A DNA stretch of 64,000 bases from an uncultured Candidatus Saccharibacteria bacterium (GTDB lineage: Bacteria; Patescibacteriota; Minisyncoccia; Phycocordibacterales; UBA918), in the NCBI GenBank assembly GCA_964399295.1, contig CAYNQD010000001.1, positions 86,454 through 150,453 of the forward strand. The letters are read 5' to 3'. Under the pieces are notes generated by a model that did not search any database, was not told the DNA's origin, and saw only the letters and a list, made by a program, of their open reading frames with translations. This document shows, piece by piece, positions 11,253-34,754 of this stretch. Made by a program: the position numbers and the translations under genes. The stretch's first letter is position 1; every line of letters begins with the position of its first letter.

Positions 11253-11255
11253 TTT

Positions 11256-13244
11256 ATGGCTGTAGTTCCCATTAGCAAGGTGCGTATTTTGTCCTACCGT
11301 AGCGATGTGGCTAAAATGCTGGATATCGTGCAAAGGGCTGGGGCTATTGAATTTAAAGAGGTGGCGGAGATTAAGGATTTTTCGGTCGAAGCTGTCGTTT
11401 TAGGCAAAAACTACCAAGATTTGATTAGTAAAATCAAGCATAATATTGATATTTTAGGCCATTACGAGGTGAAGATGGGTACTTTGGCCAAATTAAAGCA
11501 GGGCACGACCATCAATCTTTCCGAATCGCAGCTGGCTGAGCAGCTGGTGGATAATTCAGAGCTGGAAGCCATTTTTGAGGAAATTAGAGCGGGGCATGAC
11601 GAGGAGGTTAATTTAAAGGAGCAAATACGAGTTGCTGGCGAAAGGAAAAAACAATTGTTGCCGTGGCAATCTTTAACAATACCAATGCAAAGCTTGCTGA
11701 CCAAATCCACCAACACCTATCTGCTTAGGGTTAAAAAAATAAAGAGTAAGGGCATTGATCCGAAGAAGCCAATGGCTAAAAAAATTGAAGCGGTGCTTGA
11801 TGACGCCGGCTTTTTGTCTTACGTGGAGGAGGTTAACAGATCTTTGTTTAGCGTGACTGTTTATAGGACTCCAAACGCAAGTTTGTTGCCTGAAATAATA
11901 AAGCTACTTCGGGCGGAATCTGCTTTGTTGCCGGTTGGTGAAGGGACTATTGCTTCCAATCTGGCTACGTTGGAAAAAAAAGCTGTTGAGCTGGAAAAAA
12001 GCTACCAAGAGGCGCAGCTTAAAATGGCTGAACTGGCGCAAAAATATCTAAGAAAGCTCAAAATTGCTCATGATGTTTGGGTTTGGAACCATGACAAGAA
12101 TGCCGCGGCGGAGTTTGGAAAATCTTCAAAATATCTGACGATTTTTGAAGGTTGGTGCAATCAGCAAATCCTGCCCCAGCTTGAAGCCGACTTGACCAAG
12201 GCTGGAGTAATATTTAATATTTCTGACATACCACTGCTGGCAAAGGAATCTTCGCCGGTAGAAATTAAAAATAATCCGTTGGTGGAGCCGTTTGAGGTTG
12301 TGACTCGCTTGGGGGGATTGCCCGGCCCCAGAGATATTGACCCAACGCCATTTATGGCCTTTTTCTTCCTTTTCTTTGCTGCCATGTCTTTGACTGATTC
12401 GGGGTATGGTTTGCTCTTGATGGCTTTTACTTTTCCGGTGGCTTTTTATTTTGCGGTGTCAAAGCAGGTGAAGCTATTTGCGCGGCTGCTATTTATGGTG
12501 GGGGCGGCTACTGTTGTCATGGGCTTATTCTTCGGCGGTTATTTTGGCATCAGCATGAGTCAAATGCCTCAATTCTTGCAAGATTTGCAGGTATTTAATC
12601 CGGTGAACGACCCGCTTAAGGTCTTTGGCTTTGCTTTGATTTTGGGTATTATTCAGGTAATGTTTGGGATGACGCTGGGAATCTTGCGTGAAGCTAAAAA
12701 TGGTCAAGTCATGCAGGGAGTGTTGGACAAAGGGCCTTGGCTTTTGTTATTCATTACACTAATTCTTTATGGAATGTCCAGTATTGGTTTTATTGCCGGT
12801 AGTGTTGATTTTTATCTAAATTTTGTCTACGCGGCGGTGGCAATCATCATGCTTACCAGCGCGCGCAAAGGGGTTGGTATATTTGATAAAATTAAGAAAG
12901 GCGTTTTGAGTTTGTACGGTTCTGTCTCTTACTTCTCAGATATATTGTCCTACTCACGACTTTTGGCTTTGGGGCTAGCTACCAGCGCCTTGGCTTTTGC
13001 TGTAAACTTAATCGCCGGTATCGTGAATGACCTTATCCCCGTTATTGGATTTATAGCGGCAGGTTTGGTTTTGGTTTTTGGACACATGCTGACTTTAGCT
13101 ATAAACACTCTCGGCGCTTTTATCCATAGTGCTCGTTTGCAGTTTATTGAGTTTTTTGGTAAGTTTGTTGTCGAATCTGGTAGGCTTTTTAAGCCTCTAA
13201 CTAGAAAGGAGTCGTATGTAAACTTTAAAAAGGATAGTGGTTGA
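11256..13244 (+). CDS. atpI: V/A-type ATPase subunit I (a-subunit, membrane stator)
   Basis: 662 aa. N-terminal soluble coiled-coil half plus C-terminal polytopic membrane half. Located between the G-like and proteolipid genes. Confidence 0.8.
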   Translation: MAVVPISKVRILSYRSDVAKMLDIVQRAGAIEFKEVAEIKDFSVEAVVLGKNYQDLISKIKHNIDILGHYEVKMGTLAKLKQGTTINLSESQLAEQLVDNSELEAIFEEIRAGHDEEVNLKEQIRVAGERKKQLLPWQSLTIPMQSLLTKSTNTYLLRVKKIKSKGIDPKKPMAKKIEAVLDDAGFLSYVEEVNRSLFSVTVYRTPNASLLPEIIKLLRAESALLPVGEGTIASNLATLEKKAVELEKSYQEAQLKMAELAQKYLRKLKIAHDVWVWNHDKNAAAEFGKSSKYLTIFEGWCNQQILPQLEADLTKAGVIFNISDIPLLAKESSPVEIKNNPLVEPFEVVTRLGGLPGPRDIDPTPFMAFFFLFFAAMSLTDSGYGLLLMAFTFPVAFYFAVSKQVKLFARLLFMVGAATVVMGLFFGGYFGISMSQMPQFLQDLQVFNPVNDPLKVFGFALILGIIQVMFGMTLGILREAKNGQVMQGVLDKGPWLLLFITLILYGMSSIGFIAGSVDFYLNFVYAAVAIIMLTSARKGVGIFDKIKKGVLSLYGSVSYFSDILSYSRLLALGLATSALAFAVNLIAGIVNDLIPVIGFIAAGLVLVFGHMLTLAINTLGAFIHSARLQFIEFFGKFVVESGRLFKPLTRKESYVNFKKDSG

Positions 13245-13295
13245 GATTAGGTTTTCACTGCCTTTTAATTATTAAAAATTTAAAAAAAATAAAAT

Positions 13296-13778
13296 ATGGA
13301 ATTTTCGATGGGAGTAATTTTAGTATTCGTAGGAGCCTTGATTTGTGCTTTGCTTGGTTTTCTTGGTTCGGCTATCGGTATGAGAGGTATCGGTAAAGCT
13401 GCTACTGGTGTTATTAGTGAAAGACCGGAATTGGCCGGTAAGATGATTGTGCTTCAGGCTTTGCTGGGTTCACAGGGTATTTACGGCTTAGTGGGAGCTT
13501 TTTTGCTTTTAAATTTCTCCGGAATTTTGGGCGCGACTGAGCTGCCTTCAATTGATACTATGACCGGTATTCTATTTCTGATAGCTGGTTTGCCGATTGG
13601 TATTTCCGGCTTGTTTACCGCTATGTTTCAGGGAGCGGTGGCTTCATCAGCGGTTTTGATGGTTTCAAAAAATGAGTCAAGTTTGGGATCAGGCATTATC
13701 TTGGTCGCTATGATCGAGACCTGGGCCATCTTTGGTATCCTACTTAGCTTCATTTTCCTGACCTCTATTGGTTCTTAA
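13296..13778 (+). CDS. atpK: V/A-type ATPase proteolipid subunit K (c-ring)
   Basis: 160 aa, four hydrophobic helices (duplicated hairpin). Conserved carboxylate in the last helix (VAMIETWAIFGILL). Confidence 0.8.
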   Translation: MEFSMGVILVFVGALICALLGFLGSAIGMRGIGKAATGVISERPELAGKMIVLQALLGSQGIYGLVGAFLLLNFSGILGATELPSIDTMTGILFLIAGLPIGISGLFTAMFQGAVASSAVLMVSKNESSLGSGIILVAMIETWAIFGILLSFIFLTSIGS

Positions 13779-13789
13779 GCTAAAAAGCG

Positions 13790-14362
13790 ATGTCACTGCA
13801 AGCAATAGTTGAAAAAATAAAGACTGAAGCGCAAACTGAAGCGCAAAAGCTGCTTTCTGTGGCTGAGGATAATTCTCTGGAAATAAAAGAGGAAACGCAA
13901 AACCAAATCAATGAAATTAAAAACAATTTTCAGACGATTCTTGACAAGCAGAAAGAGAAAAAAAGAACTATCGTTCATTCTTTGGAAAGACAAAAATTAG
14001 CTCTGGCCGCACAGACCGTGAAAAGACGATTACTCGACAGTGTTTATTATGAAGCGTTGGAAACGATAATCAAGCTGCCGGCCAATGAATATATTGCAAT
14101 ATTTGTCGGTAAGTACGAAAAACTTGTACCTAAGGATGTTGAGATTGATTTGATTTTGGCGCCAGAAGCCAGACAAGCCGAAACCGCCGAAATCTGTAAG
14201 GCTTTAAATTGGTCGGCACAGGTGGAAGTAAGCCTTAATTTGCGTGGTGGTTGTATTCTAAAAAGTAAGAACTTTGAGTACGATCTATCAATCGAAAAAT
14301 TATTCACCGACACGCGTTCTAATTCTGAAATTGAAATCGCGCAGTTGTTATTCCGGAAGTAA
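13790..14362 (+). CDS. atpE: V/A-type ATPase subunit E
   Basis: 190 aa. N-terminal long charged helix (KIKTEAQTEAQKLL...) and C-terminal globular part. Position in operon. Confidence 0.6.
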   Translation: MSLQAIVEKIKTEAQTEAQKLLSVAEDNSLEIKEETQNQINEIKNNFQTILDKQKEKKRTIVHSLERQKLALAAQTVKRRLLDSVYYEALETIIKLPANEYIAIFVGKYEKLVPKDVEIDLILAPEARQAETAEICKALNWSAQVEVSLNLRGGCILKSKNFEYDLSIEKLFTDTRSNSEIEIAQLLFRK

Positions 14363-14383
14363 TATTATTTGTCATAATTTCTC

Positions 14384-15382
14384 ATGGGAACGTCCTATAC
14401 TTACAGTGCCAGTCGAGTAAAAACTATCGAAAGATTGTTTCTTACCGCTGCCGATATAGAGCGTTTGCTTTCAGCCGCTCCTGGGGCGGAGCTGGTGCAG
14501 GAATTAAAAGACACTTATCTCTCTGAATATATTGCCGGCAACGATATTGAAAGTGTATTCAAAGCGCTAGAGCAAAGCAAAATCGAAACTAAAATTCTTT
14601 TGGAAAAAATATCACCCAAGCCAACTCTGTTTGATTTTGTTTGGGTTCGTTACGATTTTCATAATTTGCGTTTGTTTTTGCGGGCAAAAGCAGCTGGCCT
14701 TAGTCTTGATGAAGTGAGGGTGTACATGTCGACTCTAGGAACGCATAATCCTGACCGACTGCATGAATTGGTTGAAAGTGGCAGCAATATCGACGATAGT
14801 CCGGAAAAATTAGACGCGGATTTGAAAGCAGCCTACAAAAACGCCCTCAAAGTAATGAATGAAAAGGAAATTGCTTTCGCTGACATTGAAATGGATAAAA
14901 GTTATTTTGCCATTATTAAGAAATTGGCTGATAAGTCTAAAAATTCTGTTATAAAAGAAATTGTAAAGTTGCAGATAGATTTATTTAATCTCAAAACCAA
15001 ATTACGCATTTTGTTGGTTCCTAGAGTTGAAGATGACAGGCTTTGGTTTGTGGAGGGTGGTAGTTTTTCTCTGGTTGAAATTGAAACCAAAGAAAAAACC
15101 GTGAAGAAACTAAAGACTTTTGGTGATGAAAAATATTGGCGGGAGGCTTTGCTTTCATACGAAAAGGAAGGAAACCTAACTTCTCTTGACGCTAAAATTG
15201 ATGATTATTTGCTGTCGCGGATAATCAAATCAAACCAAGAAGTTTTCTCTTTTTCTACGCTGTTGGCACACGTTGTCAAGGTGCAAAACATGGCTTTGAT
15301 TATTCAGGCGATAGTGGCAGGCAAAGACAGCGGGCAAAACGAGTTGGCGATAAGAGAACAATTAAGAACTATCTATGTCTAA
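14384..15382 (+). CDS. atpC: V/A-type ATPase subunit C (d-subunit)
   Basis: 332 aa, all-alpha. Position between E and F. Its last 8 nt overlap the next gene. Confidence 0.6.
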   Translation: MGTSYTYSASRVKTIERLFLTAADIERLLSAAPGAELVQELKDTYLSEYIAGNDIESVFKALEQSKIETKILLEKISPKPTLFDFVWVRYDFHNLRLFLRAKAAGLSLDEVRVYMSTLGTHNPDRLHELVESGSNIDDSPEKLDADLKAAYKNALKVMNEKEIAFADIEMDKSYFAIIKKLADKSKNSVIKEIVKLQIDLFNLKTKLRILLVPRVEDDRLWFVEGGSFSLVEIETKEKTVKKLKTFGDEKYWREALLSYEKEGNLTSLDAKIDDYLLSRIIKSNQEVFSFSTLLAHVVKVQNMALIIQAIVAGKDSGQNELAIREQLRTIYV

Positions 15383-15728
15383 AAATCCCAATCAATACAA
15401 AATTGCCATTATTGGCCCGAGCAACGTCGTGTCGGGGTTTAAGGCTCTGGGTGTGGACGCTTTTACCGCTCAAAAATCAGATGAAGTGATTTTGCAATTG
15501 AAGAAGATTAAACAAATAAACAACAGCGAAAACGAGTCGGCTGCCTACGCCGTGGTCTGCATCATTGAGGACTTGATGTTGGATATTGATGAAAAAGAGT
15601 ACGCCAAAGCCGTGCACGGGCCGCTACCGGCGGTGGTGATGTTGCCAAGTTCTAAAGGCAGCCAAGGCTTAGCCGAGGCGCGCTTGCGGAAACTGTCGGA
15701 AAAGGCCATCGGCGCGTCGATTTTTTAA
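15375..15728 (+). CDS. atpF: V/A-type ATPase subunit F
   Basis: 117 aa. [28 protein letters not shown] is a typical subunit-F start. Immediately upstream of A. Confidence 0.6.
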
Positions 15729-15753
15729 AAGCTTTATTATTAAATTTATTACC

Positions 15754-17553
15754 ATGACAAACACAATTAACACACAAGAAATTACAAAAACAGGAAAGAT
15801 TGTCCGAGTAACCGGACCATTGGTGCGCGCTAGCGGCATGTCTAGCGCCAAGCTTTATGAATTGGTGAAAGTTTCAGAAGAACGTCTGCTTGGAGAAATA
15901 ATTGAGTTGCATGGTGATATTGCTTCGATTCAGGTGTATGAAGAAACAGCAGGTATCGGGCCTGGTGATCCTGTATATCGTACCGGCAAGACCATGTCTG
16001 TTGTTTTGGCTCCTGGACTCCTTGAGTCCATCTATGATGGAGTACAAAGGCCTCTCAAAAGCATAGAAGCGGCTTCCGGCTCTTTTTACATTAAGCGAGG
16101 AATCGACGCCGAGGCTTTGGACAAAACCAAGAAATGGGATTTTAAAGCCACGGCCAAAGTCGGTGACAAAGTAATTGGTGGTGATATTTTGGGTATGGTT
16201 GATGAAACTAAGCTGATTGTTCACAAGATAATGGTACCGCCTAATTTGTCTGGAACGATAAGCAGTCTCAAATCCGGTAGTTTTAATATTACTGAAACTA
16301 TAGCCGAGATAAAAACCGAATCAGGCGAAATTGTACCGGTGACGATGCTTCAGTATTGGCCGATTCGTGAGCCGCGTCCAAAAAACAAAAAAATATTTCC
16401 TTCAGAACCACTTCTAACTGGTGTACGCTCAGTTGATACTTTTTTCCCAATTGCCAAGGGCGGGGCTGGTTCTGTTCCTGGGCCGTTTGGTGCTGGTAAG
16501 ACCGTGATTCAGCAATCAATTTCTAAATATTGTAACGCGGAAGTGATTGTTTACATCGGCTGTGGTGAGCGTGGTAATGAAATGACAGAAGTACTTTCTG
16601 AATTTCCGCATCTGATAGACCCAAACTCTGGTGAGTCTTTGATGAAGCGCACAATCCTGATTGCTAATACTTCAAACATGCCGGTAGCTGCTCGTGAGGC
16701 TTCTATTTATACGGGTATTACTATCGCTGAGTATTATCGTGACATGGGCTACAATGTAGCCTTGATGGCCGACTCGACTTCACGCTGGGCTGAGGCGATG
16801 CGTGAGATTTCCGGCCGTTTGGAAGAAATGCCAGGCGAGGAAGGTTATCCGGCTTATTTGTCATCGCGCACAGCGCAATTTTACGAACGAGCGGGGGTGG
16901 TGGAAACTCTTGGTTCGGAAGGACGTACCGGCTCCTTGACGGTGATTGGCGCCGTGTCGCCACCGGGCGGGGATTTGTCTGAGCCGGTATCGCAATCAAC
17001 TTTGCGTGTAACCAAAACTTTCTGGTCGCTGGATGCTGGCTTGGCTTACAAAAAACATTTTCCCTCTATAAATTGGCTGTCTTCATACTCTTTGTACGTG
17101 GACAACTTCACTGATTTCTGGCGTGAAAAAGTAGCTCCGGATTTTGCTACTATCAGAAAACAAGCCATGGAACTTTTAGAAAAGGAGTCAGCCTTGCTTG
17201 AGATTGTGCGTTTGGTCGGTATGGAATCTTTGTCAAACAATGACAGATTGATTCTTGAAGTGGCTGGCATGTTGCGTGAGGATTTCCTAATGCAAAACGC
17301 TTTTGACAAGGAAGACGCTTACATGCCTATTAAAATTCAATACGGATTATTAAAGGCTATCATGACTTTCTACACGGAAGGCGCGTCTGTGGTAGCCGCT
17401 GATGAATTTGATTTTTCTCTCTTCAAGCAGATGGAAACTTTCAAGGAAGTTGGCCGACTAAAGGACAAGAAAGAACTTTCTGATTATGAAGCTTTCATAG
17501 AGAGGGTTAAAAAAGAAATTAGCGCTTTATCAGCTCAAGCTAACACTAAGTAA
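15754..17553 (+). CDS. atpA: V/A-type ATPase catalytic subunit A
   Basis: 599 aa. P-loop GPFGAGKTV. Non-homologous insert region. CGERGNEM and SRWAEA motifs. Confidence 0.9.
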
Positions 17554-17554
17554 C

Positions 17555-18934
17555 ATGAATCAAAAAGAATACAAAACCGTCTCTGCCATTACCGGCCCCT
17601 TGCTGATTGTGGAAGGCATTAGTGGCGTGAAATATGAAGAATTGGTGGAGGTGAATGTGCCTGGGGAGAAGAAGGTTCGTCTGGGAAAGGTTTTGGATAT
17701 TTCGGAGGATAAGGCGGTGGTGCAGATGTTTGACCCAACTACCGGCATGCAAGCGGAAGACACTCGTGTGCGTTTTCGGGGGGAGACTCTAAAGCTTGGC
17801 GTTAGTGAAGATATGCTGGGACGGGTGTTTACCGGATCGGGAGTGGTCAATGACGGCGGGCCGGAAATTATTCCGGAAAAGCGCATCGACATAAACGGCA
17901 ACGCCATCAACCCATACAGCCGCGAATTTCCAAATGATTTTATTCAGACCGGCATCTCATCTATCGACGTGATGAATACTTTGGTGCGCGGCCAGAAGCT
18001 CCCTATCTTCTCGGGAGCCGGTCTTCCGCATTCCAATTTGGCGGCTCAGATTGCTCGCCAAGCCAAGGTAAAGGACGGTGGGGAATTTGCGATTGTGTTT
18101 GCGACTTTAGGAGTTTCTTTTGAAGAAGCGGAATACTTCAGGCGACAATTTCAAGAAGCTGGCTCTTTGGAGCGTAGCGTACTTTTCATCAATACCGCCG
18201 CTGATCCGGTAGTGGAGCGTATTTCTACCCCGCGCATGGCACTCACCACCGCTGAATATCTGGCTTTTGAGAAGGGAATGCACGTGCTGGTAATTCTAAC
18301 GGACATGACCAACTACTGTGAAGCTTTGCGTGAAGTGTCTTCTGTGCGCAAGGAGGTGCCGGGACGGCGCGGTTATCCCGGGTATCTTTATACTGATTTG
18401 TCTACCATTTATGAACGAGCGGGAAGGGTAAGGGGTAAAACCGGCACCATTACACAAATTCCAATTCTCAGTATGCCGGACGACGACAAAACTCATCCGG
18501 TACCAGACTTGACGGGCTATATTACTGAAGGTCAGTTTGTGATTTCTCGTGAACTCTATCGCAAAGGTATTTTACCACCAGTTGACGTGCAAGGTTCACT
18601 TTCAAGACTGTGGGCAGCGGGAGTGGGAGAAGGAAAAACCCGTGACGATCACAAGACTCTGAAAGATCAACTTTTTGCTTCTTATGCTGTGGGCAAGGAG
18701 GTGCGTGAATTGGCCGTGGTGCTGGGCGAGGCTTCGCTTGATGATTCGGACAAGGCCCACTTGCGCTTCGCGGACGCCTTTGAACGCGAATTTGTCGGGC
18801 AGGGCGAATATGAAAATCGCTCTGTGGAAGAATCGCTTGATATCGGCTGGCGACTTTTGACCATGCTTCCGCGGGAGTCACTCAAAAGATTAAAACTCGA
18901 ACTGATAGAGCAATACATGCCGGTGGCAGAGTAG
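17555..18934 (+). CDS. atpB: V/A-type ATPase subunit B (regulatory)
   Basis: 459 aa. [18 protein letters not shown] is a degenerate P-loop characteristic of B subunits. Starts 2 nt after the A stop. Confidence 0.9.
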
Positions 18935-18948
18935 TCTTTGTTATACTA

Positions 18949-19581
18949 TTGATTATGATTTTAAAAGTCAGTCCAACTCGAATATCACTTCTAAATCTTA
19001 AGAAGGAAATTAAGGTGGCCAAGAAAGGGCATAAGCTTCTTAAAGATAAACGTGACGGTCTCATCAAAAAATTCATGATGATTATTTTTGAGACTCGTGA
19101 TTTGCGCAAGTCGGTCGAGGAGCGTCTGGGCTTGGCTTTTGACTCTTATCAAAGGTCCAGTGCTGTTACGCCCAGACTAGCGCAAGAAACGGCTCTTTTG
19201 GTGCCAAACGCCAAGATAAGTCTTGAGGTGGCGATAAAAAATGTAATGTCGGTTAAGATTCCGGAATTTAAAATTTCCAAGGAAGGTTCGGCTTTTGCTT
19301 ATGGGTTTTTGGATACGACCGGAGACTTGGATAACGCGATTGTAAAATTTGACGCGGTGTTTGTGGACATTGTGCGGTTGGCGGCTTTGGAAAAAAGCGC
19401 GGAAAATCTGGCGGAAGAAATTGAAAAAACCCGCCGTCGCGTAAGTTCCCTTGAAAACGTGATGATACCCAACCTAGCAGAAACTATAAAATTCATCGCC
19501 ATGCAGCTTGATGAACGCGCCCGCGACGCGATAGTATCTACCATGCGTGTAAAAGCGATGATTGTGGAGAAGGAGGGGTAG
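18949..19581 (+). CDS. atpD: V/A-type ATPase subunit D (central stalk)
   Basis: 210 aa coiled-coil with a KGHKLLKDKRDGL start typical of subunit D. Last gene of the operon. Confidence 0.8.
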   Translation: MIMILKVSPTRISLLNLKKEIKVAKKGHKLLKDKRDGLIKKFMMIIFETRDLRKSVEERLGLAFDSYQRSSAVTPRLAQETALLVPNAKISLEVAIKNVMSVKIPEFKISKEGSAFAYGFLDTTGDLDNAIVKFDAVFVDIVRLAALEKSAENLAEEIEKTRRRVSSLENVMIPNLAETIKFIAMQLDERARDAIVSTMRVKAMIVEKEG

Positions 19582-19643: not shown

Positions 19644-20531
19644 CTATGCCACAAAACCACCAACTCTATACAAAGCACTCTCATTAGCTTTCATGTAAGC
19701 GATTTGCAAATTGTTGTTTTTAGCAAAATCGCTGATGGCCTCCGTGTTTAAAAGCAGGGCGGTGGTGGCAGAAGCGTCGGCGTCGCAGGCGTTGTCGCTC
19801 TTGGTAAATACTCCGTCGATTTCTAGTTCGGCATCCTTATCTTTGCCGACTATGTGGTGGTATTTTTTGTTGTTGACCACCCAGCGTCTTTTGTGCGGGC
19901 TGGAGGCGGCAAAACCTTGATTTAAAATAGTGGTCGTACCTATGTACTCGTTGGCCTGTATGGGATGTTCAAGATAAATGGTTATCGACTCTCCATTGTC
20001 ACTGGTGGCGTACATGTCACCGCCGCCATTTATTAGGAAGTAATTTAGATCATAAGTATTTTGCAGTTCTTGCGCCAATAAATCAATCAAGTAACCTTTG
20101 CCAAAACCACCAAGATCAATCTTGCCGGATTTCAAAGTGATTGCTTCACTGGAGATATCTAAATCCGTCAGTGGGTCGGGGTCGGTGAAAATTATTTCTT
20201 TGGGTTTGAAGGAGTAGTCTTTGCCGTAGCCTCGACTTTCTAAGATTTCACCAATCAGCAAATTAAACAAACCTCCGGTTTTTGAATAGAGAGCTTGCCC
20301 GCGTTTTAAAATATCCACGGTCATGGCGTCGGGATTATTTAATTTGCCGGTGTTGTTGATCTGGCTGATGAGGGAAGTGGTTTTAAAGCGTGAGTAGCGG
20401 TTTTCAAAGTCGTAGATAATAGAACGCAGGCCGTCTACGACGGCCTGCGTTCTTGCTTCTGAAATTTCCGCAAAAACTTCAATCCACCAGACGGTGCCAA
20501 GGGCGTTGATGGCGGGAAGAAGAGTGGACAT
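19644..20531 (-). CDS. apbE: FAD:protein FMN transferase (ApbE family)
   Basis: 295 aa. GGFGKGYLIDL resembles ApbE GGIAKGYAVD. Metal/FAD-binding C-terminal acidic residues. Confidence 0.7.
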   Translation of the reverse strand: MSTLLPAINALGTVWWIEVFAEISEARTQAVVDGLRSIIYDFENRYSRFKTTSLISQINNTGKLNNPDAMTVDILKRGQALYSKTGGLFNLLIGEILESRGYGKDYSFKPKEIIFTDPDPLTDLDISSEAITLKSGKIDLGGFGKGYLIDLLAQELQNTYDLNYFLINGGGDMYATSDNGESITIYLEHPIQANEYIGTTTILNQGFAASSPHKRRWVVNNKKYHHIVGKDKDAELEIDGVFTKSDNACDADASATTALLLNTEAISDFAKNNNLQIAYMKANESALYRVGGFVA

Positions 20532-21038
20532 TTAGGAATTGACTTCGGAAATAATTTTAGCCACGGCTTCATTAAAGGCTCCGGAAGTGAGTGAAGCTCC
20601 GCCGACGCGAGACAGAGAAATATCTTCCAATTTCTTGCCGACGACTTCGGTCTTATAAACGCCGTTAAAGCGTTCTTGGTTTGGGTTGGAAAAACCATTT
20701 TCCTTCTTGTCGTAAAGGACGGAAACAGCTGTCACGGTATTGCTTGCGTCTATGGTCAAAGTGACGTCGATGTTGTGGTTGGTTCTGGCGGGAGTGATGT
20801 AGCCAGCGTCACTGGAGTAGCTTCTCTCTGAACTGGTGGCTATTTCGGTGGCGGCGACATCATCTTCTGAAATTTCCGCTTCTTGAACAATCGGCTCGTT
20901 ATTTTGGGTTTCATCATCGCGGTTTGTCTCTAGGGTGTCGGTGGTTAGAACTTCGTTTTCAGGAGTGTTTTTCGTTACCAGAAAAAAAGTTCCCAGCAAA
21001 ATGATTCCTACGCCTAAAATGATTGCAATTAACGGCAT
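20532..21038 (-). CDS. Membrane-anchored FMN-binding domain protein (likely ApbE flavinylation substrate)
   Basis: N-terminal TM helix. C-terminal VGGASLTSGAFNEAV resembles the FMN_bind D-x-x-SGAT-(x)-T flavinylation motif. Start abuts the apbE stop. Confidence 0.55.
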   Translation of the reverse strand: MPLIAIILGVGIILLGTFFLVTKNTPENEVLTTDTLETNRDDETQNNEPIVQEAEISEDDVAATEIATSSERSYSSDAGYITPARTNHNIDVTLTIDASNTVTAVSVLYDKKENGFSNPNQERFNGVYKTEVVGKKLEDISLSRVGGASLTSGAFNEAVAKIISEVNS

Positions 21039-21130
21039 GATGTTTTATATAAGATACTTTATGATTTTTAACTTGACAATCTTACCAAAAAATCAATTAT
21101 GATACAATGTTGGAACTCTAAAAGTTTTTT

Positions 21131-22687
21131 ATGCCTACAATTTTAAACAAAATATTTCAACCAATCAGAAAACGCCTCGACGACACGGCCATGTATCGGA
21201 CAGTAACTCTGGCTTTGCTAAGCTTGGTATTTTGTTCCTTGGTATTGGGTTTTGTTGGTACTTTTCCATACTCTGGCCTGGAGCAACTCATCTCTCTTTT
21301 TACGGCTTTAGCGGTGGCTCTTAGCGCCAATGTTCTTTTGAGCAAATTGTTAAAAGTTCATGTCAATAATGAGTCCGCTATTATCACCGCTTTAATTTTG
21401 TTCTTTTTGGTTATTCCTCCGCAAATATCTAATCTGTCTGATTTGTGGCAAATTTCGGTAGTGGTTTTGTTGGCCATTTTATCAAAATTTTTGTTGGTGT
21501 GGAATAAACAACACCTATTCAATCCGGCGGCTTTTGGAGTTTTCGCTCTGGCTTTAATTTATGAGTTGTTTCCCATAAATGGTTATTTTGAAACTGTATG
21601 GTGGATTGGAAAACCGGAGTTGTTTATTCCACTTTTAATAGCGGGTTCACTTTTAGTTTTTAAAATTAGGCGCTGGACACCGGTCTTGGTTTTTATCGGA
21701 GTGGCATTTGTGATGTTTTTGTTTGAGGAGTGGCGTTTTGGATCTGATGTGCTGGCTCAAGCGCCAAATTTCTGGCTATCCGGTCCGAGTTTGTTTTTGG
21801 CTTTCTTTATGTTGACTGAGCCATTCACCATGCCGCCAACAAAACGCTTGCAAGCCGGATACGGAGCGGTTTTGGGATTTTTGGCACAAACCACCATGTT
21901 TTTGCCGGTATTGAAAATGACACCGGAATTAGCTTTAATTATCAGTAATTTATTATTTTATCCAACAACCTTAAAGCGTAAACTGATTTTGCCGTTGGTA
22001 GAAAAACGAGAATTAGCAACCAACACTTATGAATTTGCTTTTGCCAAACCAAAGGGATTAACTTTCAAAGCCGGACAATATTTAGAGTGGATGTTGCCTC
22101 ACTCTGGTGCGGACAATCGCGGTATACGTCGCTATTTTACCATCGCGTCCGCTCCCAACGATGATTTGTTGAGAATCGGTGTACGTTTTGCGGATACGGT
22201 TAGCAGTTTTAAAACTAAGTTGAAATCTTTGGAAGTCGGCGATAAGATTATTGCCAGTCAGTTGGCGGGGGATTTTGTCTTGCCAAAAAATCCAAATATT
22301 AAATTAGCTTTTATTGCCGGCGGGATTGGTATTACGCCATTTGTGAGCCATTTGGGATACATGGCGGCCGCTGGCGGAAAATTCAATACGATTCTCTTCA
22401 ACTGCAACAACACCTCTATCGAAATTGCTTATAAGGATAATTTGCGTGAAGCGTCGGAAAAAATAGCTTGTAACGTAGTGAACATTTTGGCGAAAGAAAA
22501 TCTGCCTGGATATGAAAGTGGTTTTTTGACAGCCGATATGGTGAAGAAATATAGCCCAGATTATCTGGAGCGACATTGGTATATTTCCGGCCCGCCGCCG
22601 ATGGTCAGTGCTTATAGTCAGCTACTCACAGGTATGGGTGTGCCTAGCAAGCAAATTGTAACTGATTTCTTTCCAGGTTTGGCTTAA
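21131..22687 (+). CDS. Polytopic membrane domain fused to FNR/NOX-type FAD- and NAD(P)-binding reductase domain
   Basis: About 290 aa with at least 8 hydrophobic helices (includes HLFNPAAFG). C-terminal about 230 aa carries RRYFTIASAPNDD (RxY[ST] FAD motif, NOX-like HPFTxxSAP) and GGIGITPF (NAD(P) glycine motif). Confidence 0.55.
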   Translation: MPTILNKIFQPIRKRLDDTAMYRTVTLALLSLVFCSLVLGFVGTFPYSGLEQLISLFTALAVALSANVLLSKLLKVHVNNESAIITALILFFLVIPPQISNLSDLWQISVVVLLAILSKFLLVWNKQHLFNPAAFGVFALALIYELFPINGYFETVWWIGKPELFIPLLIAGSLLVFKIRRWTPVLVFIGVAFVMFLFEEWRFGSDVLAQAPNFWLSGPSLFLAFFMLTEPFTMPPTKRLQAGYGAVLGFLAQTTMFLPVLKMTPELALIISNLLFYPTTLKRKLILPLVEKRELATNTYEFAFAKPKGLTFKAGQYLEWMLPHSGADNRGIRRYFTIASAPNDDLLRIGVRFADTVSSFKTKLKSLEVGDKIIASQLAGDFVLPKNPNIKLAFIAGGIGITPFVSHLGYMAAAGGKFNTILFNCNNTSIEIAYKDNLREASEKIACNVVNILAKENLPGYESGFLTADMVKKYSPDYLERHWYISGPPPMVSAYSQLLTGMGVPSKQIVTDFFPGLA

Positions 22688-22692: not shown

Positions 22693-23355
22693 TTACCAAT
22701 CAATTTTTTTCAGTCCGTGTTTTTCTAAATAGGCGTTGGTTTGGCTGAATGGCTTTGAACCAAAGAAACCAGTATGTGCTGAGAAAGGGGAAGGGTGAGG
22801 GGCCTTTAATATTAAATGTTTGTTTTGGTCAATTAAGACGGCTTTGGCCTGAGCAAATTTTCCCCAAAGGATAAAAACGACACGTTCTTTTTTATCGGAA
22901 ATGGTTTTGATTATGGTGTCGGTGAAGGTTTCCCAGCCAATACCTTGGTGCGAGCCAGCTTCGCTGGCGCGCACCGTGAGCGTGGCGTTTAGCAACAACA
23001 CCCCCTGCTTGGCCCATATTTCCAGATTGCCCGAAGCGGGAATAGGCTGGCTCAAATCTTCATTTAGTTCTTTATAAATATTTTGCAGTGATGGCGGCAC
23101 TCTAACTCCATCCGGCACGGAAAAAGACAGACCGTGCGCTTGCCCGGGGCCGTGGTAAGGGTCTTGTCCTAAAATCACCACTTTCACCTCCGCAAACGGA
23201 CAAAAAGCAAAAGCGTTAAAAATATTTTTTGGGTGCGGATAAATTATTTCACGGAGGTAAGATTGCTTGACTGCTTCTGTTAGGTTTTTAAAATAAGGCT
23301 TTTCAAATTCTTCAGTCAGTGCCTCTTGCCAGCTTTTTTCAATTTTTACGCTCAT
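22693..23355 (-). CDS. ung: Uracil-DNA glycosylase (family 1)
   Basis: ILGQDPYHGPGQAHGLSFSV (water-activating loop) and APHPSPFSAH (HPSPLS) motifs. Confidence 0.85.
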   Translation of the reverse strand: MSVKIEKSWQEALTEEFEKPYFKNLTEAVKQSYLREIIYPHPKNIFNAFAFCPFAEVKVVILGQDPYHGPGQAHGLSFSVPDGVRVPPSLQNIYKELNEDLSQPIPASGNLEIWAKQGVLLLNATLTVRASEAGSHQGIGWETFTDTIIKTISDKKERVVFILWGKFAQAKAVLIDQNKHLILKAPHPSPFSAHTGFFGSKPFSQTNAYLEKHGLKKIDW

Positions 23356-23364
23356 AGATTATTT

Positions 23365-24234
23365 TTATTTCTGGCAACTGGGACAAAAATGAGTACCTCG
23401 GCCCGCGGTGCGAATTTTTTGAATCAGAGTTTTACATTTTGGGCAGGGAGTATTTTGTTTACCAAAGACTTTTAAGAAATCAGTGTAATTGCCGGTCTCG
23501 CCGCCGGTGTCCACGAAATGTTGAAAAGTAGTACCGCCAAAGGTCAATGATTTTTTCATTACTTTACCACCAGCCTTTATAATGTCCGACACTTCTTTCT
23601 TGGTAACGAGATTTGACGGCCGGTTTGGGTGAATCTTGGCCAAAAATAAGGCTTCATCGACGTAGATGTTACCAAGACCAGCCACCAATGATTGGTTTAG
23701 CAAAGTCGCTTTGATGGGGGATTTGCGTTTTTGCAGTTTGTTGAAAAAAGTTTCGTAGTCAAAATTATCAGCGATTGGCTCTGGGCCAAATCTGGCTTTG
23801 GCTTTTTCCACCTCTTCCTTAGTGGCGGTTTTTATGTAGCCAAATAAGCGCATGTCATTGAAAAATAAAGACGAACCATCGGTGAAATGAAAAGCTACTC
23901 GGGTGTGGCGATTGGGCAAATCTTCACCATCGCTTTTGGAGGTGGAGTGACCACCGCCGATTATTTCCTGTTTGTTGACATAGAAAAACTGTCCGGTCAT
24001 TTTCAGATGCGCCAACAGAAATAGATTATCTTCATTTGAAAATTTAAATATCAATAATTTTCCGATGCGGTCGATTCCGGAAAAAGATTTACCGGTAACT
24101 TTTTTTGAGAAGTCTGAACGCAAACCTATCGTCTTCGGATTAAAGATTTTTACGCTGGCAATTTTTTTATTTAAAATTTTGTGAAGCAATTGCAGTCTAA
24201 CTGTTTCCACTTCCGGTAATTCAGGCATGGACAT
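23365..24234 (-). CDS. mutM: Formamidopyrimidine-DNA glycosylase
   Basis: N-terminal MPELPEVE (catalytic Pro2/Glu3). C-terminal CPKC...CPSC zinc finger. 289 aa. Confidence 0.85.
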   Translation of the reverse strand: MSMPELPEVETVRLQLLHKILNKKIASVKIFNPKTIGLRSDFSKKVTGKSFSGIDRIGKLLIFKFSNEDNLFLLAHLKMTGQFFYVNKQEIIGGGHSTSKSDGEDLPNRHTRVAFHFTDGSSLFFNDMRLFGYIKTATKEEVEKAKARFGPEPIADNFDYETFFNKLQKRKSPIKATLLNQSLVAGLGNIYVDEALFLAKIHPNRPSNLVTKKEVSDIIKAGGKVMKKSLTFGGTTFQHFVDTGGETGNYTDFLKVFGKQNTPCPKCKTLIQKIRTAGRGTHFCPSCQK

Positions 24235-24340: not shown

Positions 24341-25984
24341 ATGGATACATCAGTGTTTGTTCTTGTGGTAGCCTTTGCTCTCTTTCTTTTGATGGGGGTG
24401 TTGCTGTGGGGTCGAACTCCTTTATTACCAGGTAAATTTACCCACGGCAAAAATAATTTGGAATTTACGGATAATCAAGAGCAATTAGAAAACTACAGCA
24501 CTGATGCCAGCTGGTTTAAAATGAAACCGGAGAAAGTCTATTTTCCAAGGTCGGTTGCGGACATTCAGTCTATTGTAGCAGAGCAGCAGAAAAATAAGCT
24601 GGCTGGACAGCCGGTGTCATTGACAGTCAGAGCCGGCGGAACCTGCATGAGCGGCGGTTCGCTTACGGAAGGAGCTATTGTAGACATGACTCGTCATCTG
24701 AACAAAGTACAAATTGATGCCAAAAATATGACAGCGACAGTGGAGGCGGGAGCTTATTTTCGTGATATAGAAGATAAGGCTGCAAAATTTGGTTTGATGT
24801 TTCCCGCTTATCCGTCGTCGCATCGGATTTGTGGAATTGGAGGCATGATTGGCAACAACGCTTCCGGCGAAAAAAGTCTGCGCGGCGGTGCTACGGGCGA
24901 TAATATCCTTGAGCTTGAAGTGGTGTTGGCTGATGGTTCGGTTTTAAACCTCAAGCCCAAATCTTTGGTGGAAAATAATTTCACCGACATTGAAAAAGCG
25001 GTTTTGGCTTTGTATGACCAGTACAACGCAAAACTAAAAGAGGCGGTTGGTAATGTAAAGAAAGCCGCGTCTGGCTATCGTCTTGATAAAGTGGTGGAGA
25101 ATGGAACCTTCAGCACTATACCGCTTTTTGTGGGCGCTCAAGGTACGCTGGGTATTGTTACCAAGGCTGTCCTAAAATTATCACCAATTCCCAAACACAC
25201 AGAGCTGGTGGTGATATCAGCCGATAATCTTCTTGATTTACCGGAAATTCTACGCGTTGCTTTTGAACACAACCCTGAGAGCTTGGAAACTTTTGACATA
25301 AACACGTTTAAACAAGCTAAAAAGCACTTAAAGGGACACGCCAAGCATTTGTTACCATATATAAATGAGGAAGCAGAGTTGTTTATTTTGGCTCAGTTTA
25401 GTGAAGATACCAAAGAGGCAACCAAAAAACAAACGGCCGCTTTTTCCGATAAATTAAAAGAAAAAAGATTTTTTATCTCTCATATCACTCGGGCTTTAGA
25501 CGTATTTTCGGCTTGGCAGGTGCGGCGAAATTCATTTTTACTAATGCGAGATCACAACCCGCGTGGCTTTAGAGCGGTGCCGTGTATTGAAGACGTGATA
25601 GTTCCCGTTGAAGCTATTGGTCAATTTATCGAATCGTTACAAAAAATACTAAATAAACACACTGTTTATTATGGTTTTCATGGGCATATCGGTGACGGTT
25701 CTTTGCGTATAATTCCGGTGTTTGATTTTGGAAAAGCTGATGCCATGGATAATGTTTTTGCTCTGATGCAAGATACTTTTGCGCTGGTGAAAAAACTAAA
25801 AGGTAACATCAGTGCCGACCACAGCGACGGCATAATCCGCACCCCGTTTTTGCGTAAATTTTATGGGGAAGATACTTACGAGGTCTTTGAGAAGATAAAG
25901 AATATCTATGATCCGGAAAATATAATGAACACAAACAAAAAAGTCAGCGGAACGCTAGACTTAGTTCGCAAATACATGCAATGA
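24341..25984 (+). CDS. FAD-linked oxidase (GlcD/D-lactate dehydrogenase-like) with N-terminal TM helix
   Basis: 547 aa. PCMH-type FAD-binding region (VRAGGTCMSGGS...). N-terminal hydrophobic helix. Confidence 0.65.
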   Translation: MDTSVFVLVVAFALFLLMGVLLWGRTPLLPGKFTHGKNNLEFTDNQEQLENYSTDASWFKMKPEKVYFPRSVADIQSIVAEQQKNKLAGQPVSLTVRAGGTCMSGGSLTEGAIVDMTRHLNKVQIDAKNMTATVEAGAYFRDIEDKAAKFGLMFPAYPSSHRICGIGGMIGNNASGEKSLRGGATGDNILELEVVLADGSVLNLKPKSLVENNFTDIEKAVLALYDQYNAKLKEAVGNVKKAASGYRLDKVVENGTFSTIPLFVGAQGTLGIVTKAVLKLSPIPKHTELVVISADNLLDLPEILRVAFEHNPESLETFDINTFKQAKKHLKGHAKHLLPYINEEAELFILAQFSEDTKEATKKQTAAFSDKLKEKRFFISHITRALDVFSAWQVRRNSFLLMRDHNPRGFRAVPCIEDVIVPVEAIGQFIESLQKILNKHTVYYGFHGHIGDGSLRIIPVFDFGKADAMDNVFALMQDTFALVKKLKGNISADHSDGIIRTPFLRKFYGEDTYEVFEKIKNIYDPENIMNTNKKVSGTLDLVRKYMQ

Positions 25985-28895: not shown

Positions 28896-30917
28896 TTGAA
28901 ACAAAAAAATTTAAGGTATAATTGTCTTAACGCTATGCAAACCTCAATCTTAAAAAACAAACAAATAGATTTAGAGGGTGCAGTCTCACTCTTGGGTGTT
29001 TCTTCTGCTACGGTAAGAAATTGGATAAGACATGATTATCTTGTCCCTGACAACAAGGAAGGTAGAAAGCTTCTGTTTGATCATGACCATGTTAGAGATT
29101 TAAAAGAGAAAATAGATTCGGGCGTAATAGACCGTTTGAACAAACGGGCAAACAAAAAGGGGTCTATAAATACGTTTATACCTGATGAATATACGGACAA
29201 CATCGATGTAATTTTATTTGTAGAAAAAATTATCGACCAAAATGTTGAGAATCAACTCGATCGTGACAGTATTCTTCTCTCGGTCGCTCTTAATCTGCTC
29301 AAAAAACAGCAATTGATTACATATACGGATACACTTTCAAAACTTTCCTACAAAAATAAAATTATAAAAGACGAACTAGCTTGGTGGCTGAATAAAACCC
29401 AGAGGAGCTTTTCTTTTGATAAGTATTCGCATCTCTTAAATATTCAATTACCCGAGGCTGGTGACTTATTGGGAGTCGTATATCAATCACTTGTGGCCGA
29501 AGGTAGTAAAGCTCAAGCAGGTTCTTATTACACCCCAAAAAGTGTAGTTGATGAAATCATTAATAGTCACATACAAAATGATTCACTAGTTCTTGATCCC
29601 TGCTGTGGAACAGGCCAATTTCTCTTGTCTGCAGCATCTAAGGTCAAAAATCCTAGAAACATATGGGGCTTTGACATAGATGAAACGGCTACAAGATTAG
29701 CTCGCTTAAATTTGCTAATAAAGTTTCCAGATGAAGAATTTTCACCAAATATATACCACAAGAATACCTTGCTCCATGTTCAATCGGGGGGGCTATTTGC
29801 TGACGATATCCCGAATTTTGATGTAGTTATCACAAATCCACCTTGGGGGGTCCATTTTTCTCAACACGAGACTGATCAACTTCAAGGTATATATCCATCC
29901 ATTCAATCAAATGAGTCTTTTTCGTATTTTCTCAATAAGGGATTAAGCCTTCTCAAAGACGGTGGAATATTGTCGTTTATCCTTCCTGAGTCAATCCTCA
30001 ATATAAAGACTCATCGAGATATAAGAGAAGTAATATTGAACACGTCAAAAATCCAAAAAATTAAGTTCTTGGACCGAGTATTTAAAAATGTTTTTACACC
30101 TGTAATAAGACTTGATGTAGTTAAAACTAGCCCAGCAGATGAGCATACTTTTGAAGCTGAAAAGTATGAGGATATTTTAAGAGTTGATCAGTCGAGATTA
30201 AAAAAGAATCATGACTATATTTTTGATGTATTTTCTAACGGTAGTGATATGGTTATCATCGACAAGGTGTATAGCCTTGAACATGTAACCCTAGAAAATA
30301 ATGCAGAATGGGCGTTAGGAATAGTGACTGGTGATAATAAAAAATATCTAAAAGAAAGAGAGACATCAGACAGCGAACCCATTATTACAGGCAAAGATGT
30401 CAAGAGATTTATAACCTGTAAGCCAAAAAACTTTATTAGGTTTGATATTGAGAAGTTTCAACAGGTTGCTCCAGAATATAAATACCGTACCGAGGAAAAA
30501 TTGATTTATAAATTTATATCGAAAGACCTTGTTTTCTCTTATGACAACAAAAAGACTCTAACTCTCAATAGTGCGAATATTCTTATACCTAAAATAGCTG
30601 GGTATCCTGTAAGGACCATACTAGCACTGTTCAACTCGAGTCTGTATCAGTTTGTGCATCAGAAAAAGTTCGCTTCGATAAAGGTTTTAAGAAGTGATAT
30701 TGAAAAGCTACCTTTGCCTACACTAAACAATAACCAACATCATGAAATAATTTCTCTGGTTGACAAGCTTCTTGATGAGGAAATTTCATCTGAGCAAAGG
30801 AAAGAAAAATATGTGGAGCTCGATAATCTGATTATGGACATCTTCTCCCTAAATGAGGACCAAAAAGCACATGTCGTGTCAAATGTGAAGATTTCTGATA
30901 AACTATTATCCGTATAA
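28896..30917 (+). CDS. N6-adenine DNA methyltransferase, gamma-class Eco57I family, with N-terminal excisionase-type HTH and C-terminal target-recognition region
   Basis: VSSATVRNWIRHDYLVP (HTH_17-like), GSYYTPKSVV, LDPCCGTGQFLL (motif I), VVITNPPWG (motif IV NPPW). 673 aa. Confidence 0.75.
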   Translation: MKQKNLRYNCLNAMQTSILKNKQIDLEGAVSLLGVSSATVRNWIRHDYLVPDNKEGRKLLFDHDHVRDLKEKIDSGVIDRLNKRANKKGSINTFIPDEYTDNIDVILFVEKIIDQNVENQLDRDSILLSVALNLLKKQQLITYTDTLSKLSYKNKIIKDELAWWLNKTQRSFSFDKYSHLLNIQLPEAGDLLGVVYQSLVAEGSKAQAGSYYTPKSVVDEIINSHIQNDSLVLDPCCGTGQFLLSAASKVKNPRNIWGFDIDETATRLARLNLLIKFPDEEFSPNIYHKNTLLHVQSGGLFADDIPNFDVVITNPPWGVHFSQHETDQLQGIYPSIQSNESFSYFLNKGLSLLKDGGILSFILPESILNIKTHRDIREVILNTSKIQKIKFLDRVFKNVFTPVIRLDVVKTSPADEHTFEAEKYEDILRVDQSRLKKNHDYIFDVFSNGSDMVIIDKVYSLEHVTLENNAEWALGIVTGDNKKYLKERETSDSEPIITGKDVKRFITCKPKNFIRFDIEKFQQVAPEYKYRTEEKLIYKFISKDLVFSYDNKKTLTLNSANILIPKIAGYPVRTILALFNSSLYQFVHQKKFASIKVLRSDIEKLPLPTLNNNQHHEIISLVDKLLDEEISSEQRKEKYVELDNLIMDIFSLNEDQKAHVVSNVKISDKLLSV

Positions 30918-30924
30918 TAAATAT

Positions 30925-31665
30925 ATGGATCCCCTTAAAGAAAAGCTAAATAAGCTCGTGGATGGGCTTTCTGCAGATAAAAAGGAAATAATTAAGACTA
31001 GACTTTCAAATCTCGTTTCGGTTTATCCTTTTAATGAATACGAATATATAATTTCTACCTTGTTAGGCTATAGGAAAATTACCATTGACGATTATAACCA
31101 GATTAGAGATGAATATATTGCTAAGAATATATACCTTAATATTTTCGAAATAGGATCGCCGAGGGGATTTGGTGAGCTATGGGCACAAGGACATCTTAAA
31201 GAGCTTGTACCTGAACTCGTAAAACCTACAAAGAAAATCGAAGAGAACTATAAAGGTGACTACGATTTTATATTACCTGGACAAGACCATCTTGTTCGAA
31301 TTGAGGTAAAAGCCTCAAGAGCTGTAGATGGTGATAGTGCAGAGCCTTTATATGTTAAAGCTTTGGCGTTCGACAGTAAGCAACCTTTCTGGATGAATTT
31401 TCAACAAATTAAACCGGCACACTGTGATGTATTTGTCTGGATTGCTGTGTGGCGTGATGTGATCAAGTATTGGGTCCTATCTTCCGACGAAGTAAAGAAT
31501 AATAAGTACTACTCAAAAGGTCAGCACCGAGGAAATGTTGGTGAAGGACAATTACATCTCAAAGATGACAATATCAAAGATTTTCAAATTTATGAGGTAA
31601 AAGCTGCTGAACTTAAAGATGCCATCGTGAGAGCTTATGAACGTCAAAAAAGTTCAAACGGATAA
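30925..31665 (+). CDS. Putative PD-(D/E)xK restriction endonuclease (cognate of upstream MTase)
   Basis: DYDFILPGQDHLVRIEVKASR gives D...E-V-K spacing typical of PD-(D/E)xK. Starts 7 nt after the MTase stop. Confidence 0.4.
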   Translation: MDPLKEKLNKLVDGLSADKKEIIKTRLSNLVSVYPFNEYEYIISTLLGYRKITIDDYNQIRDEYIAKNIYLNIFEIGSPRGFGELWAQGHLKELVPELVKPTKKIEENYKGDYDFILPGQDHLVRIEVKASRAVDGDSAEPLYVKALAFDSKQPFWMNFQQIKPAHCDVFVWIAVWRDVIKYWVLSSDEVKNNKYYSKGQHRGNVGEGQLHLKDDNIKDFQIYEVKAAELKDAIVRAYERQKSSNG

Positions 31666-31757
31666 GGCTATTTAGCCCCTAAATGCCCCTGTGTACGCTT
31701 TTCTGGCCCCATTCGGGGCTTCTTGCGTATATGCCAGATTTCGCCAACTTTTTAGAG

Positions 31758-33029: not shown

Positions 33030-33033
33030 AACT

Positions 33034-34707: not shown

Positions 34708-34754
34708 CATTTTTATTTTACCACAACGACGCATCCTGAGCACCTTAAAATCGC

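Follow-up and report, generated by a model that had tools for sequence, protein, structure and literature searches.

Positions 19644 to 22687 of the DNA analysed here, a 64-kb window (64,000 nucleotides) of contig CAYNQD010000001.1 from an uncultured Candidatus Saccharibacteria bacterium, carry three genes that encode an ApbE-type flavin adenine dinucleotide (FAD):protein flavin mononucleotide (FMN) transferase, a small membrane-anchored candidate FMN carrier and a fusion of an NqrB/RnfD-like membrane domain to an FNR-type domain predicted to bind FAD and NAD(P)H. Judged by sequence, the locus is an example from the Patescibacteria (candidate phyla radiation, CPR) of the published, sequence-defined NQR/RNF-like system, of which it is an ordinary member. 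Its most probable function, with a probability of roughly 0.6, is that of an ApbE-matured flavin unit that would take electrons from NAD(P)H in the cytoplasm, hand them to an FMN carrier outside it and thence pass them to an external acceptor. What the parts are is well supported; we infer which way the electrons flow, what accepts them and where flavinylation occurs. An extracytoplasmic flavin-based electron-transfer unit related to NQR and RNF had been proposed in the original prediction, made from the letters and reading frames of the window; it is the best-supported reading and agrees with the proposals in PMC8238504 and PMC11334425.

All three predicted open reading frames (ORFs) were confirmed at their coordinates in the window. 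The genes and their parts are as follows (aa, amino acids; TM, transmembrane).

19644..20531, minus strand: apbE (FAD:protein FMN transferase), 295 aa, with a Pfam ApbE match.
20532..21038, minus strand: putative NqrC/RnfG-like FMN_bind carrier, 168 aa, in which an N-terminal TM helix leads into a disordered linker, acidic and rich in T/S/P, and then into a small FMN_bind domain.
20976..21032, minus strand: carrier membrane anchor, aa 3-21, from a hydropathy scan and AlphaFold2 helix 3-21.
20586..20615, minus strand: predicted flavinylation motif L-S-R-V-G-G-A-S149-L-T; the S149 codon is 20592-20594.
21039..21130, no strand: divergent intergenic region of 92 bp with back-to-back promoter-like sites.
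21131..22687, plus strand: fusion protein gene, 518 aa, divergent from the carrier/apbE pair.
21131..21985, plus strand: NqrB/RnfD-like membrane domain of the fusion, aa 1-285, predicted to have about 10 membrane segments, N-in/C-in.
21566..21649, plus strand: predicted short outward loop of the fusion, aa 146-173, with E154, W157 and W158 conserved; it stands for the loop of about 70 aa that bears the flavinylated Thr in NqrB/RnfD.
21986..22687, plus strand: NqrF/FNR-type domain of the fusion for the binding of FAD and NAD(P)H, aa 286-518, with a predicted cytoplasmic location.

The system termed NQR/RNF-like was defined by Méheust et al. (eLife 2021, PMC8238504) as a PF03116+PF00175 fusion in an ApbE/FMN_bind gene cluster, and the CPR is named as one of its main hosts in the part of that paper dealing with the system. 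In the window, an N-terminal PF03116 and a C-terminal PF00175 domain occur in one protein, with ApbE and FMN_bind genes within five genes of it. The fusion architecture, which the original prediction had considered possibly novel, had thus already been defined in 2021 beside the same neighbours. In the section concerned, Huang et al. (mSystems 2024, PMC11334425) describe an NqrB/RnfD-like subunit devoid of a flavinylation site and suggest that the covalent FMN of its partner samples its flavin pocket; the protein encoded here is likewise without the flavinylated Thr and keeps the non-covalent flavin site. The same section gives an AlphaFold-multimer model of a Ktedonobacter pair in which the carrier docks on the outer face. 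There is no essential difference between this locus and the published system, the fusion, the ApbE/FMN_bind neighbours, the host group and the proposal of a one-way path from NAD(P)H to the outside all being the same. Details found here and absent from the relevant passages of PMC8238504 and PMC11334425 are the signal-less ApbE, the S-R-V-G-G-A-S motif and the carriers missed by PF04205. Full-text searches turned up no further paper in which the system is discussed, and the 2021 paper was the only CPR-specific literature found on ApbE or RnfD.

The locus was compared with 35 related loci from species-representative genomes, giving a set of 36 with the window. All 35 are from metagenome-assembled genomes (MAGs) of Patescibacteria, including Paceibacterota, Kaiserbacteria and Nomurabacteria. 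The genes for ApbE, carrier and fusion protein occur together in 30 of the 36 (fusion identity 41-65%), and this recurrence argues that their association is not due to chance.

The N-terminal half of the fusion protein matched Pfam NQR2_RnfD_RnfE (PF03116, 1.1e-13) and is labelled rnfD/RsxD/NqrB by NCBIfam. A search of PDB sequences with the single sequence of the membrane half yielded no match, and a profile was needed to reveal the homology: a profile of the N-terminal 285 residues aligned with Escherichia coli RsxD at 95% probability and with Vibrio cholerae NqrB in two blocks (fusion residues 66-145 with NqrB 143-217, and 174-275 with 287-392). Aligning this domain with RnfD/NqrB had been suggested as a check in the original prediction, and the two proved to be homologous. 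The membrane half is therefore an NqrB/RnfD homologue and neither a ferric-reductase domain nor an unrelated transporter; the latter, together with a failure of the middle protein to match FMN_bind profiles, had been named beforehand as a result that would count against the prediction, and the FMN_bind profile was passed, if narrowly. No PF01794 match was found in the fusion protein and aa 1-285 hold two His; with no haem domain present, the earlier comparison with NOX and ferric reductases has no bearing. An AlphaFold2 model built from 32 homologues had a mean predicted local distance difference test (pLDDT) score of 87.7 and a predicted template modelling (pTM) score of 0.83. Lys and Arg make up 24% of the predicted inner loops and 2.9% of the outer loops, and this bias together with the modelled helices indicates an N-in/C-in topology of about 10 segments, with the FNR-type domain inside and loop 146-161 outside. 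The architecture of a 518-aa protein joining TM helices to an FNR-type domain was thus as first proposed, with about 10 membrane segments in place of the approximately 8 counted earlier.

Two features of the membrane domain bear directly on function. In the alignment, NqrB residues 218-286, including the flavinylated T236, face only 28 residues of the fusion protein; the 'GISQAT' loop of RsxD is an insertion with no counterpart, and no [ST]GA[ST] motif is found in the fusion protein. As judged by these alignments, the loop bearing covalent FMN is deleted. The non-covalent riboflavin-type site is, by the same comparison, conserved: the riboflavin ligands of V. cholerae NqrB (T162, G198, N200, N203, A205, F342 and D346; Hau et al. 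2023) correspond to T86, K126 (in contact through its backbone), H128, N131, A133, F226 and E230, all of which are invariant or near-invariant across the family with the exception of K126. The site would presumably be occupied by a flavin. The outer face of the domain is also strongly conserved (E154, W157, W158, E199, W201 and R202).

The C-terminal half of the fusion protein matched Pfam NAD_binding_1 (8e-12) and, weakly, FAD_binding_6, and resembles NqrF, flavohaemoprotein and BenC-type reductases in NCBIfam. The RRYFTIAS and GGIGITPF sequences noted previously are present and the canonical FNR motifs are intact (R334-x-F-T337, G397-G-I-G-x-T-P and S486-G-P). The C-terminal D-F-F aligns with the gate Phe of NqrF. 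No Fe-S or haem motif was found in this half. The nearest types are NqrF, flavohaemoglobin and cytochrome b5 reductase, and the NOX-type label given in the original prediction does not hold. A stretch reading F-N-C-N-N-T-x-x-E-I would, going by the motifs of cytochrome b5 reductase, favour NADH over NADPH.

ApbE is identified by its match to Pfam PF02424 (7.2e-33; protein aa 11-275, profile positions 1-262) and aligns to solved ApbE structures (1VRM and 4XGW) beginning at its own residue 10. It keeps the catalytic His (YHHIV, H225/H226) as well as the D-A-x-x-T motif of the Mg site (D250-T256). The carrier gene and apbE were correctly described as abutting on the minus strand: the TAA stop of the former is joined to the ATG of the latter with no spacer, and translation of apbE is coupled to that of the carrier gene. 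In the window both ORFs share a reading frame, with one codon (TAA) between them. Across loci the junctions comprise spacers of 0, 2, 5, 6, 14 and 26 nt and overlaps of 1 and 4 nt. Read-through or recoding of the stop codon, which would fuse the carrier to ApbE and tether the enzyme outside, is ruled out by the TAA and by the variable spacing and frame across loci.

The middle protein exceeded the cut-off of Pfam FMN_bind (PF04205; 6.2e-6, 27.2 bits against a cut-off of 22), and the single TM anchor and GGAS motif attributed to it were both found. A single hydrophobic helix at its N-terminus (aa 3-21) is followed in the AlphaFold2 model by disorder (22-70) and a beta-beta-beta-alpha-alpha domain, pLDDT >90. 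The motif G146-G147-A148-S149-L-T-S places S149 at the N-terminus of the last helix of the model, and L-S-R-V-G-G-A-S-L-T is invariant or near-invariant in homologues (sets of 27 and 40). The hhalign program set RVGGAS in register with QFTGAT, the flavinylation site of E. coli RsxG, in a match that was not significant. The FMN_bind assignment is thus made from the near-threshold Pfam match, the invariant motif at the N-terminus of the last helix and synteny with ApbE. No D..[ST]GA[ST] motif was found anywhere in the 64-kb window. Flavinylation sites in the fusion protein or elsewhere in the window were also considered and rejected; the 'GGAT' sequences of an FAD-linked oxidase and a DUF475/TerC-family protein are family or TM motifs.

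The carrier looks extracytoplasmic, an impression that derives from its predicted homology to RnfG/NqrC, its linker, the conserved outer face of the membrane domain and a divergent locus (L028) in which the probable carrier has a lipoprotein-like N-terminus. Across homologues the linker (29-113 aa) is acidic, contains 4.3% Lys plus Arg and 43% Thr, Ser and Pro, and resembles the outer loops of the partner protein. No Lys or Arg precedes the anchor helix of the carrier, and the 15 aa that follow the helix average 0.9 Lys/Arg and 2.4 Asp/Glu. As the hydrophobic helix has no charged n-region it may or may not score as a signal peptide.

In the proposed mechanism, the cytoplasmic FNR-type domain would oxidise NAD(P)H on its FAD, with NADH the likelier donor. 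Electrons would then pass to a non-covalent flavin in the riboflavin-type site, within the cytoplasmic half of the NqrB/RnfD-like domain, and from there to FMN in an outward-facing pocket. In true NqrB and RnfD this pocket holds the covalent FMN of the subunit itself; since the corresponding loop is deleted from the fusion protein, the FMN is probably supplied by the partner, from Ser149 of the carrier, following the suggestion of Huang et al. (2024). ApbE would attach the FMN to the carrier, using FAD, and the flavinylated domain, on its long flexible linker, would pass electrons to an acceptor outside the cytoplasm. The net outcome would be a one-way disposal of cytoplasmic reducing equivalents along an all-flavin route with no haem, Fe-S cluster or quinone.

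Several observations weigh against this mechanism. The FMN_bind assignment of the carrier is weak: of 27 homologues just 9 match PF04205 at E <= 0.01, a profile of the carrier searched against PDB sequences did not retrieve NqrC or RnfG, and Foldseek comparison of its model with the PDB gave no significant match. Most of the homologues have no Pfam annotation. The canonical flavinylation motif is given in a passage of PMC12052999 as D-x-x-[ST]-G-A-[ST], whereas in the S-R-V-G-G-A-S of this clade position 1 is not Asp and position 4 is not [ST]. The clade motif does retain the acceptor Ser and the G-A-S core, and flavinylation stays plausible because a D-to-A change in the motif had only minor effects in one tested target. 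The orientation of the carrier is not settled by charge, as the anchor usually has one Lys or Arg just after the helix and none before it. No acceptor gene is evident in the neighbourhood, and full-text literature searches yielded no experiments on the NQR/RNF-like system.

The single feature that does not fit a simple extracytoplasmic picture is the absence of an export signal from ApbE. Neither a hydropathy scan nor alignment revealed a signal peptide, lipobox or TM segment in the ApbE of the window. Only 9 residues precede the first ApbE strand and, with a TAA stop immediately upstream, a longer N-terminus is not possible. The same is true of the ApbE proteins of about 30 related loci and of that of a more distant one, which also counts against the mechanism. 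Known extracytoplasmic ApbE proteins are secreted lipoproteins. A signal-less ApbE serves cytoplasmic targets according to a passage of PMC12052999 that cites Bertsova (2014); the known signal-less enzyme of Klebsiella has a cytoplasmic target, and specificity is set by localisation. Unless the carrier receives its FMN before export, a signal-less ApbE is at odds with an FMN_bind domain outside the cytoplasm. The options left are that the C-terminal motif is flavinylated before export, that the carrier faces the cytoplasm or that a second ApbE is encoded elsewhere in the genome. Since ApbE is able to modify tags of seven residues at the ends of proteins, modification prior to export is plausible. 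The signal-less ApbE poses a testable question as to where ApbE-type flavinylation happens.

The main rival to an outward-facing carrier follows from this feature. Were the carrier inserted N-out/C-in, both its FMN_bind domain and ApbE would be cytoplasmic, and the covalent FMN would bridge the FAD of the FNR-type domain and the riboflavin site, leaving the outward pocket to bind a non-covalent flavin or to reduce an external acceptor. The clade-wide lack of a signal on ApbE, whose specificity localisation is known to control, and the charge pattern of the carrier (no Lys/Arg before the helix and typically one just after) are in keeping with such an arrangement, and N-out/C-in anchors with uncharged N-termini do exist in this genome (27424-27924, with a DUF2726 nuclease-like domain). 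It is nonetheless unlikely, though it deserves more weight than any other alternative. The composition of the linker matches the outer loops of the fusion protein and not the Lys/Arg-rich inner ones, RnfG and NqrC are periplasmic, and the model of the homologous pair in the relevant section of PMC11334425 has the carrier on the outer face, a face that is strongly conserved in this family; the lipoprotein-like carrier of L028 points the same way. A minimal redox-driven pump for Na+ or H+, a two-protein 'half-NQR' that energises the membrane together with the neighbouring ATPase, is less likely again. It would account for the retention of the proposed Na+ pathway of NqrB (E157 as E81 and the gate F338 as F222, both invariant, and F342 as F226) and for V-/F-type ATPase operons in the flanks of 18 of the 36 loci. 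Yet coupling in NQR and RNF also needs NqrD/E (RnfA/E) and an NqrC that shuttles between two sites, subunits that are absent from the window, and the NqrB segment bearing E273/E274 is deleted. F226 and E230 double as riboflavin ligands, and so the conservation of F226 needs no ion pathway. The ion path of RnfD is itself still disputed in the literature, and the ATPase synteny may be mere inherited gene order in small genomes.

Operation in reverse, in which a reduced external donor would drive the reduction of NAD(P)+ inside at the expense of an ion gradient made by the ATPase, is very improbable. RNF complexes are reversible and the ATPase operons are nearby, but there is no low-potential donor module, nothing at the locus points to a donor, and fermentative CPR bacteria would be expected to need regeneration of NAD+ and not extra NAD(P)H. 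A haem-based system of the NOX/ferric-reductase type has in its favour weak NAD_binding_6 and DUOX matches, which are confined to the FNR half; the RnfD/NqrB fold, the two His and the missing PF01794 speak against it, as the recurrence of the trio in 30 of 36 loci speaks against three unrelated neighbours, and both haem-based and chance explanations are effectively excluded. A more speculative synthesis, and an unlikely one, would be an all-flavin, two-protein NADH oxidoreductase whose carrier is flavinylated in the cytoplasm, either before export or because it faces inwards, and which may act, next to the adjacent ATPase, as a minimal Na+/H+ pump through E81, F222 and F226. If true, cytoplasmic flavinylation combined with ion pumping would provide a respiratory-like energy module for ultra-small bacteria regarded as 'non-respiring'.

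The closest known systems also include the RnfD-RnfG-RnfC branch of RNF (7ZC6, 8AHX) and NqrB-NqrC of Na+-NQR (7XK3, 8A1T). The canonical complexes have six subunits, among them RnfA/E (NqrD/E), which hold an intramembrane 2Fe-2S cluster, and RnfB/C or NqrA/F. RnfA/E (NqrD/E), RnfB, RnfC and NqrA are not found at this locus: a phmmer search of the 64-kb window with RsxA, RsxB, RsxC, RsxE and RsxG of E. coli gave no match even at E <= 10, and RsxD was the only query with a match, to the fusion protein. With no homologue of RnfA, B, C or E in the window, the module is not a piece of a complete RNF operon. The membrane subunit of RNF/NQR carries covalent FMN on Thr, which that of the fusion does not, and where RNF has RnfC as its NAD(H) module, with FMN and two [4Fe-4S] clusters, an FNR-type FAD domain is here fused in cis without Fe-S. 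The electron path would be linear, in contrast to the semicircular path of RNF/NQR. In the extracellular electron transfer system of Listeria (Ndh2, EetA/B, PplA and FmnB), an ApbE-type enzyme similarly matures a tethered extracytoplasmic FMN carrier and NADH electrons are disposed of outside. The Listeria route runs through the quinone pool and EetA/B, whereas here there is no quinone step and the membrane protein is a different one; FmnB, a lipoprotein that is secreted and receives exported FAD, differs from the present ApbE, which has no export signal. Bacterial NOX and MsrQ-like ferric-reductase-domain systems also have an FNR-type NAD(P)H/FAD domain on the cytoplasmic side, fused to a conduit for electrons in the membrane, which in those cases is the bis-haem, six-helix PF01794 domain and in this one the haem-free NqrB/RnfD flavin domain.

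The usual description of Patescibacteria is of fermenters that have no electron-transport chain. A conserved, abundant, membrane-spanning module of this kind may be their main route of NAD(P)H re-oxidation, for which candidate electron destinations are oxygen, iron, host-derived acceptors and redox repair of the cell envelope. It would also offer a minimal model for flavin-only transfer of electrons, and possibly of ions, across a membrane by NqrB/RnfD-type proteins. The family appears far bigger than was reported: an exhaustive profile search returned 1435 clusters at 50% identity (E <= 1e-30), the 150th best match still being full-length (4e-120), against the 127 clusters of the NQR/RNF-like system counted in 2021 (Méheust et al., in the part of PMC8238504 that gives the count). 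According to the same source the 2021 pipeline retained only clusters with a predicted signal peptide or lipobox, and the escape of most carriers from PF04205, combined with this signal-peptide filter, probably explains the lower count. New here are the conservation of the riboflavin site alongside the loop deletion, the recurrence of the trio, the 1435 clusters and the ATPase operons of V-type or F-type within the fetched flanks of half the loci (18/36).

Back-to-back promoters in the 92-bp divergent spacer are suggested by a site on the plus strand (TTGACA, a 16-nt spacer and AATTAT; 21073-21100, 10/12) and another on the minus strand (TTGTCA, a 17-nt spacer and TATCTT; 21079-21051, 9/12), although the number of promoter-like sites is no higher than expected from shuffled sequence. 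The -35 regions of the two sites (21051-21100) overlap and are partly palindromic (TTGACA/TTGTCA), an arrangement that is consistent with co-regulation of both transcription units but is not statistically separable from chance.

A complete V-type ATPase operon at 10896-19581 (plus strand) ends 62 bp short of the 3' end of apbE. Only ORF size and TM pattern served to recognise its I-like subunit (a multi-TM protein of 662 aa), its K proteolipid (160 aa) and its small subunits; subunits A, B and D are conserved in related loci. The same position is taken by a V-type operon in L001, L011, L017, L025 and L026 and by an F-type operon in L002, L003 and L030, which looks like the replacement of one ATPase type by another inside a conserved neighbourhood. 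In other loci an F-type operon lies 4-5 kb downstream.

Variation was also seen within the module itself. Five loci (L010, L011, L014, L016 and L018) encode two tandem TM-anchored carrier paralogues, both with SRVGGASLT (e.g. L010:6813-7250 and 7314-7919), which suggests a short chain of tethered flavins. A Berkelbacteria MAG (L035) encodes a fusion homologue of 32% identity (L035:7059-8582) with no adjoining ApbE or FMN_bind gene. Beside it, at L035:8610-9080 (minus strand), lies the gene for a cupredoxin-like protein (Cupredoxin_1, 4e-11) that is anchored in the membrane and has a comparable linker rich in T and P; this protein may be an alternative extracytoplasmic acceptor or partner. In 10 loci (e.g. 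L024:5751-6458, minus strand) a conserved gene directly downstream of apbE encodes a protein of about 235 aa that has a TM anchor and the motif 'HVHGDF' but matches no Pfam family. This possible accessory protein or acceptor is not encoded in the window.

Directly downstream of the fusion gene, at 22693-24234 (minus strand), are genes judged by sequence to be uracil-DNA glycosylase-like and Fpg/MutM-like, an order kept in 15 and 11 loci, respectively, and probably representing inherited synteny without an obvious functional link. They are followed at 24341-25984 (plus strand) by a gene for an FAD-linked oxidase of the GlcD/D-lactate-dehydrogenase type (FAD_binding_4 and FAD-oxidase_C), which begins with a TM helix predicted from its charges to be an anchor of N-out/C-in orientation; this gene is not kept near the module in related loci. 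Further along, from approximately 28896 to 43306, lies a mobile or defence island of low GC content (36-39%). It encodes an N6 methylase fusion of the Eco57I/TaqI type, two serine recombinases of the large kind, a GIY-YIG protein and an AAA ATPase resembling AbiEii, as well as a C5 cytosine methylase together with a restriction endonuclease of the HaeII family.

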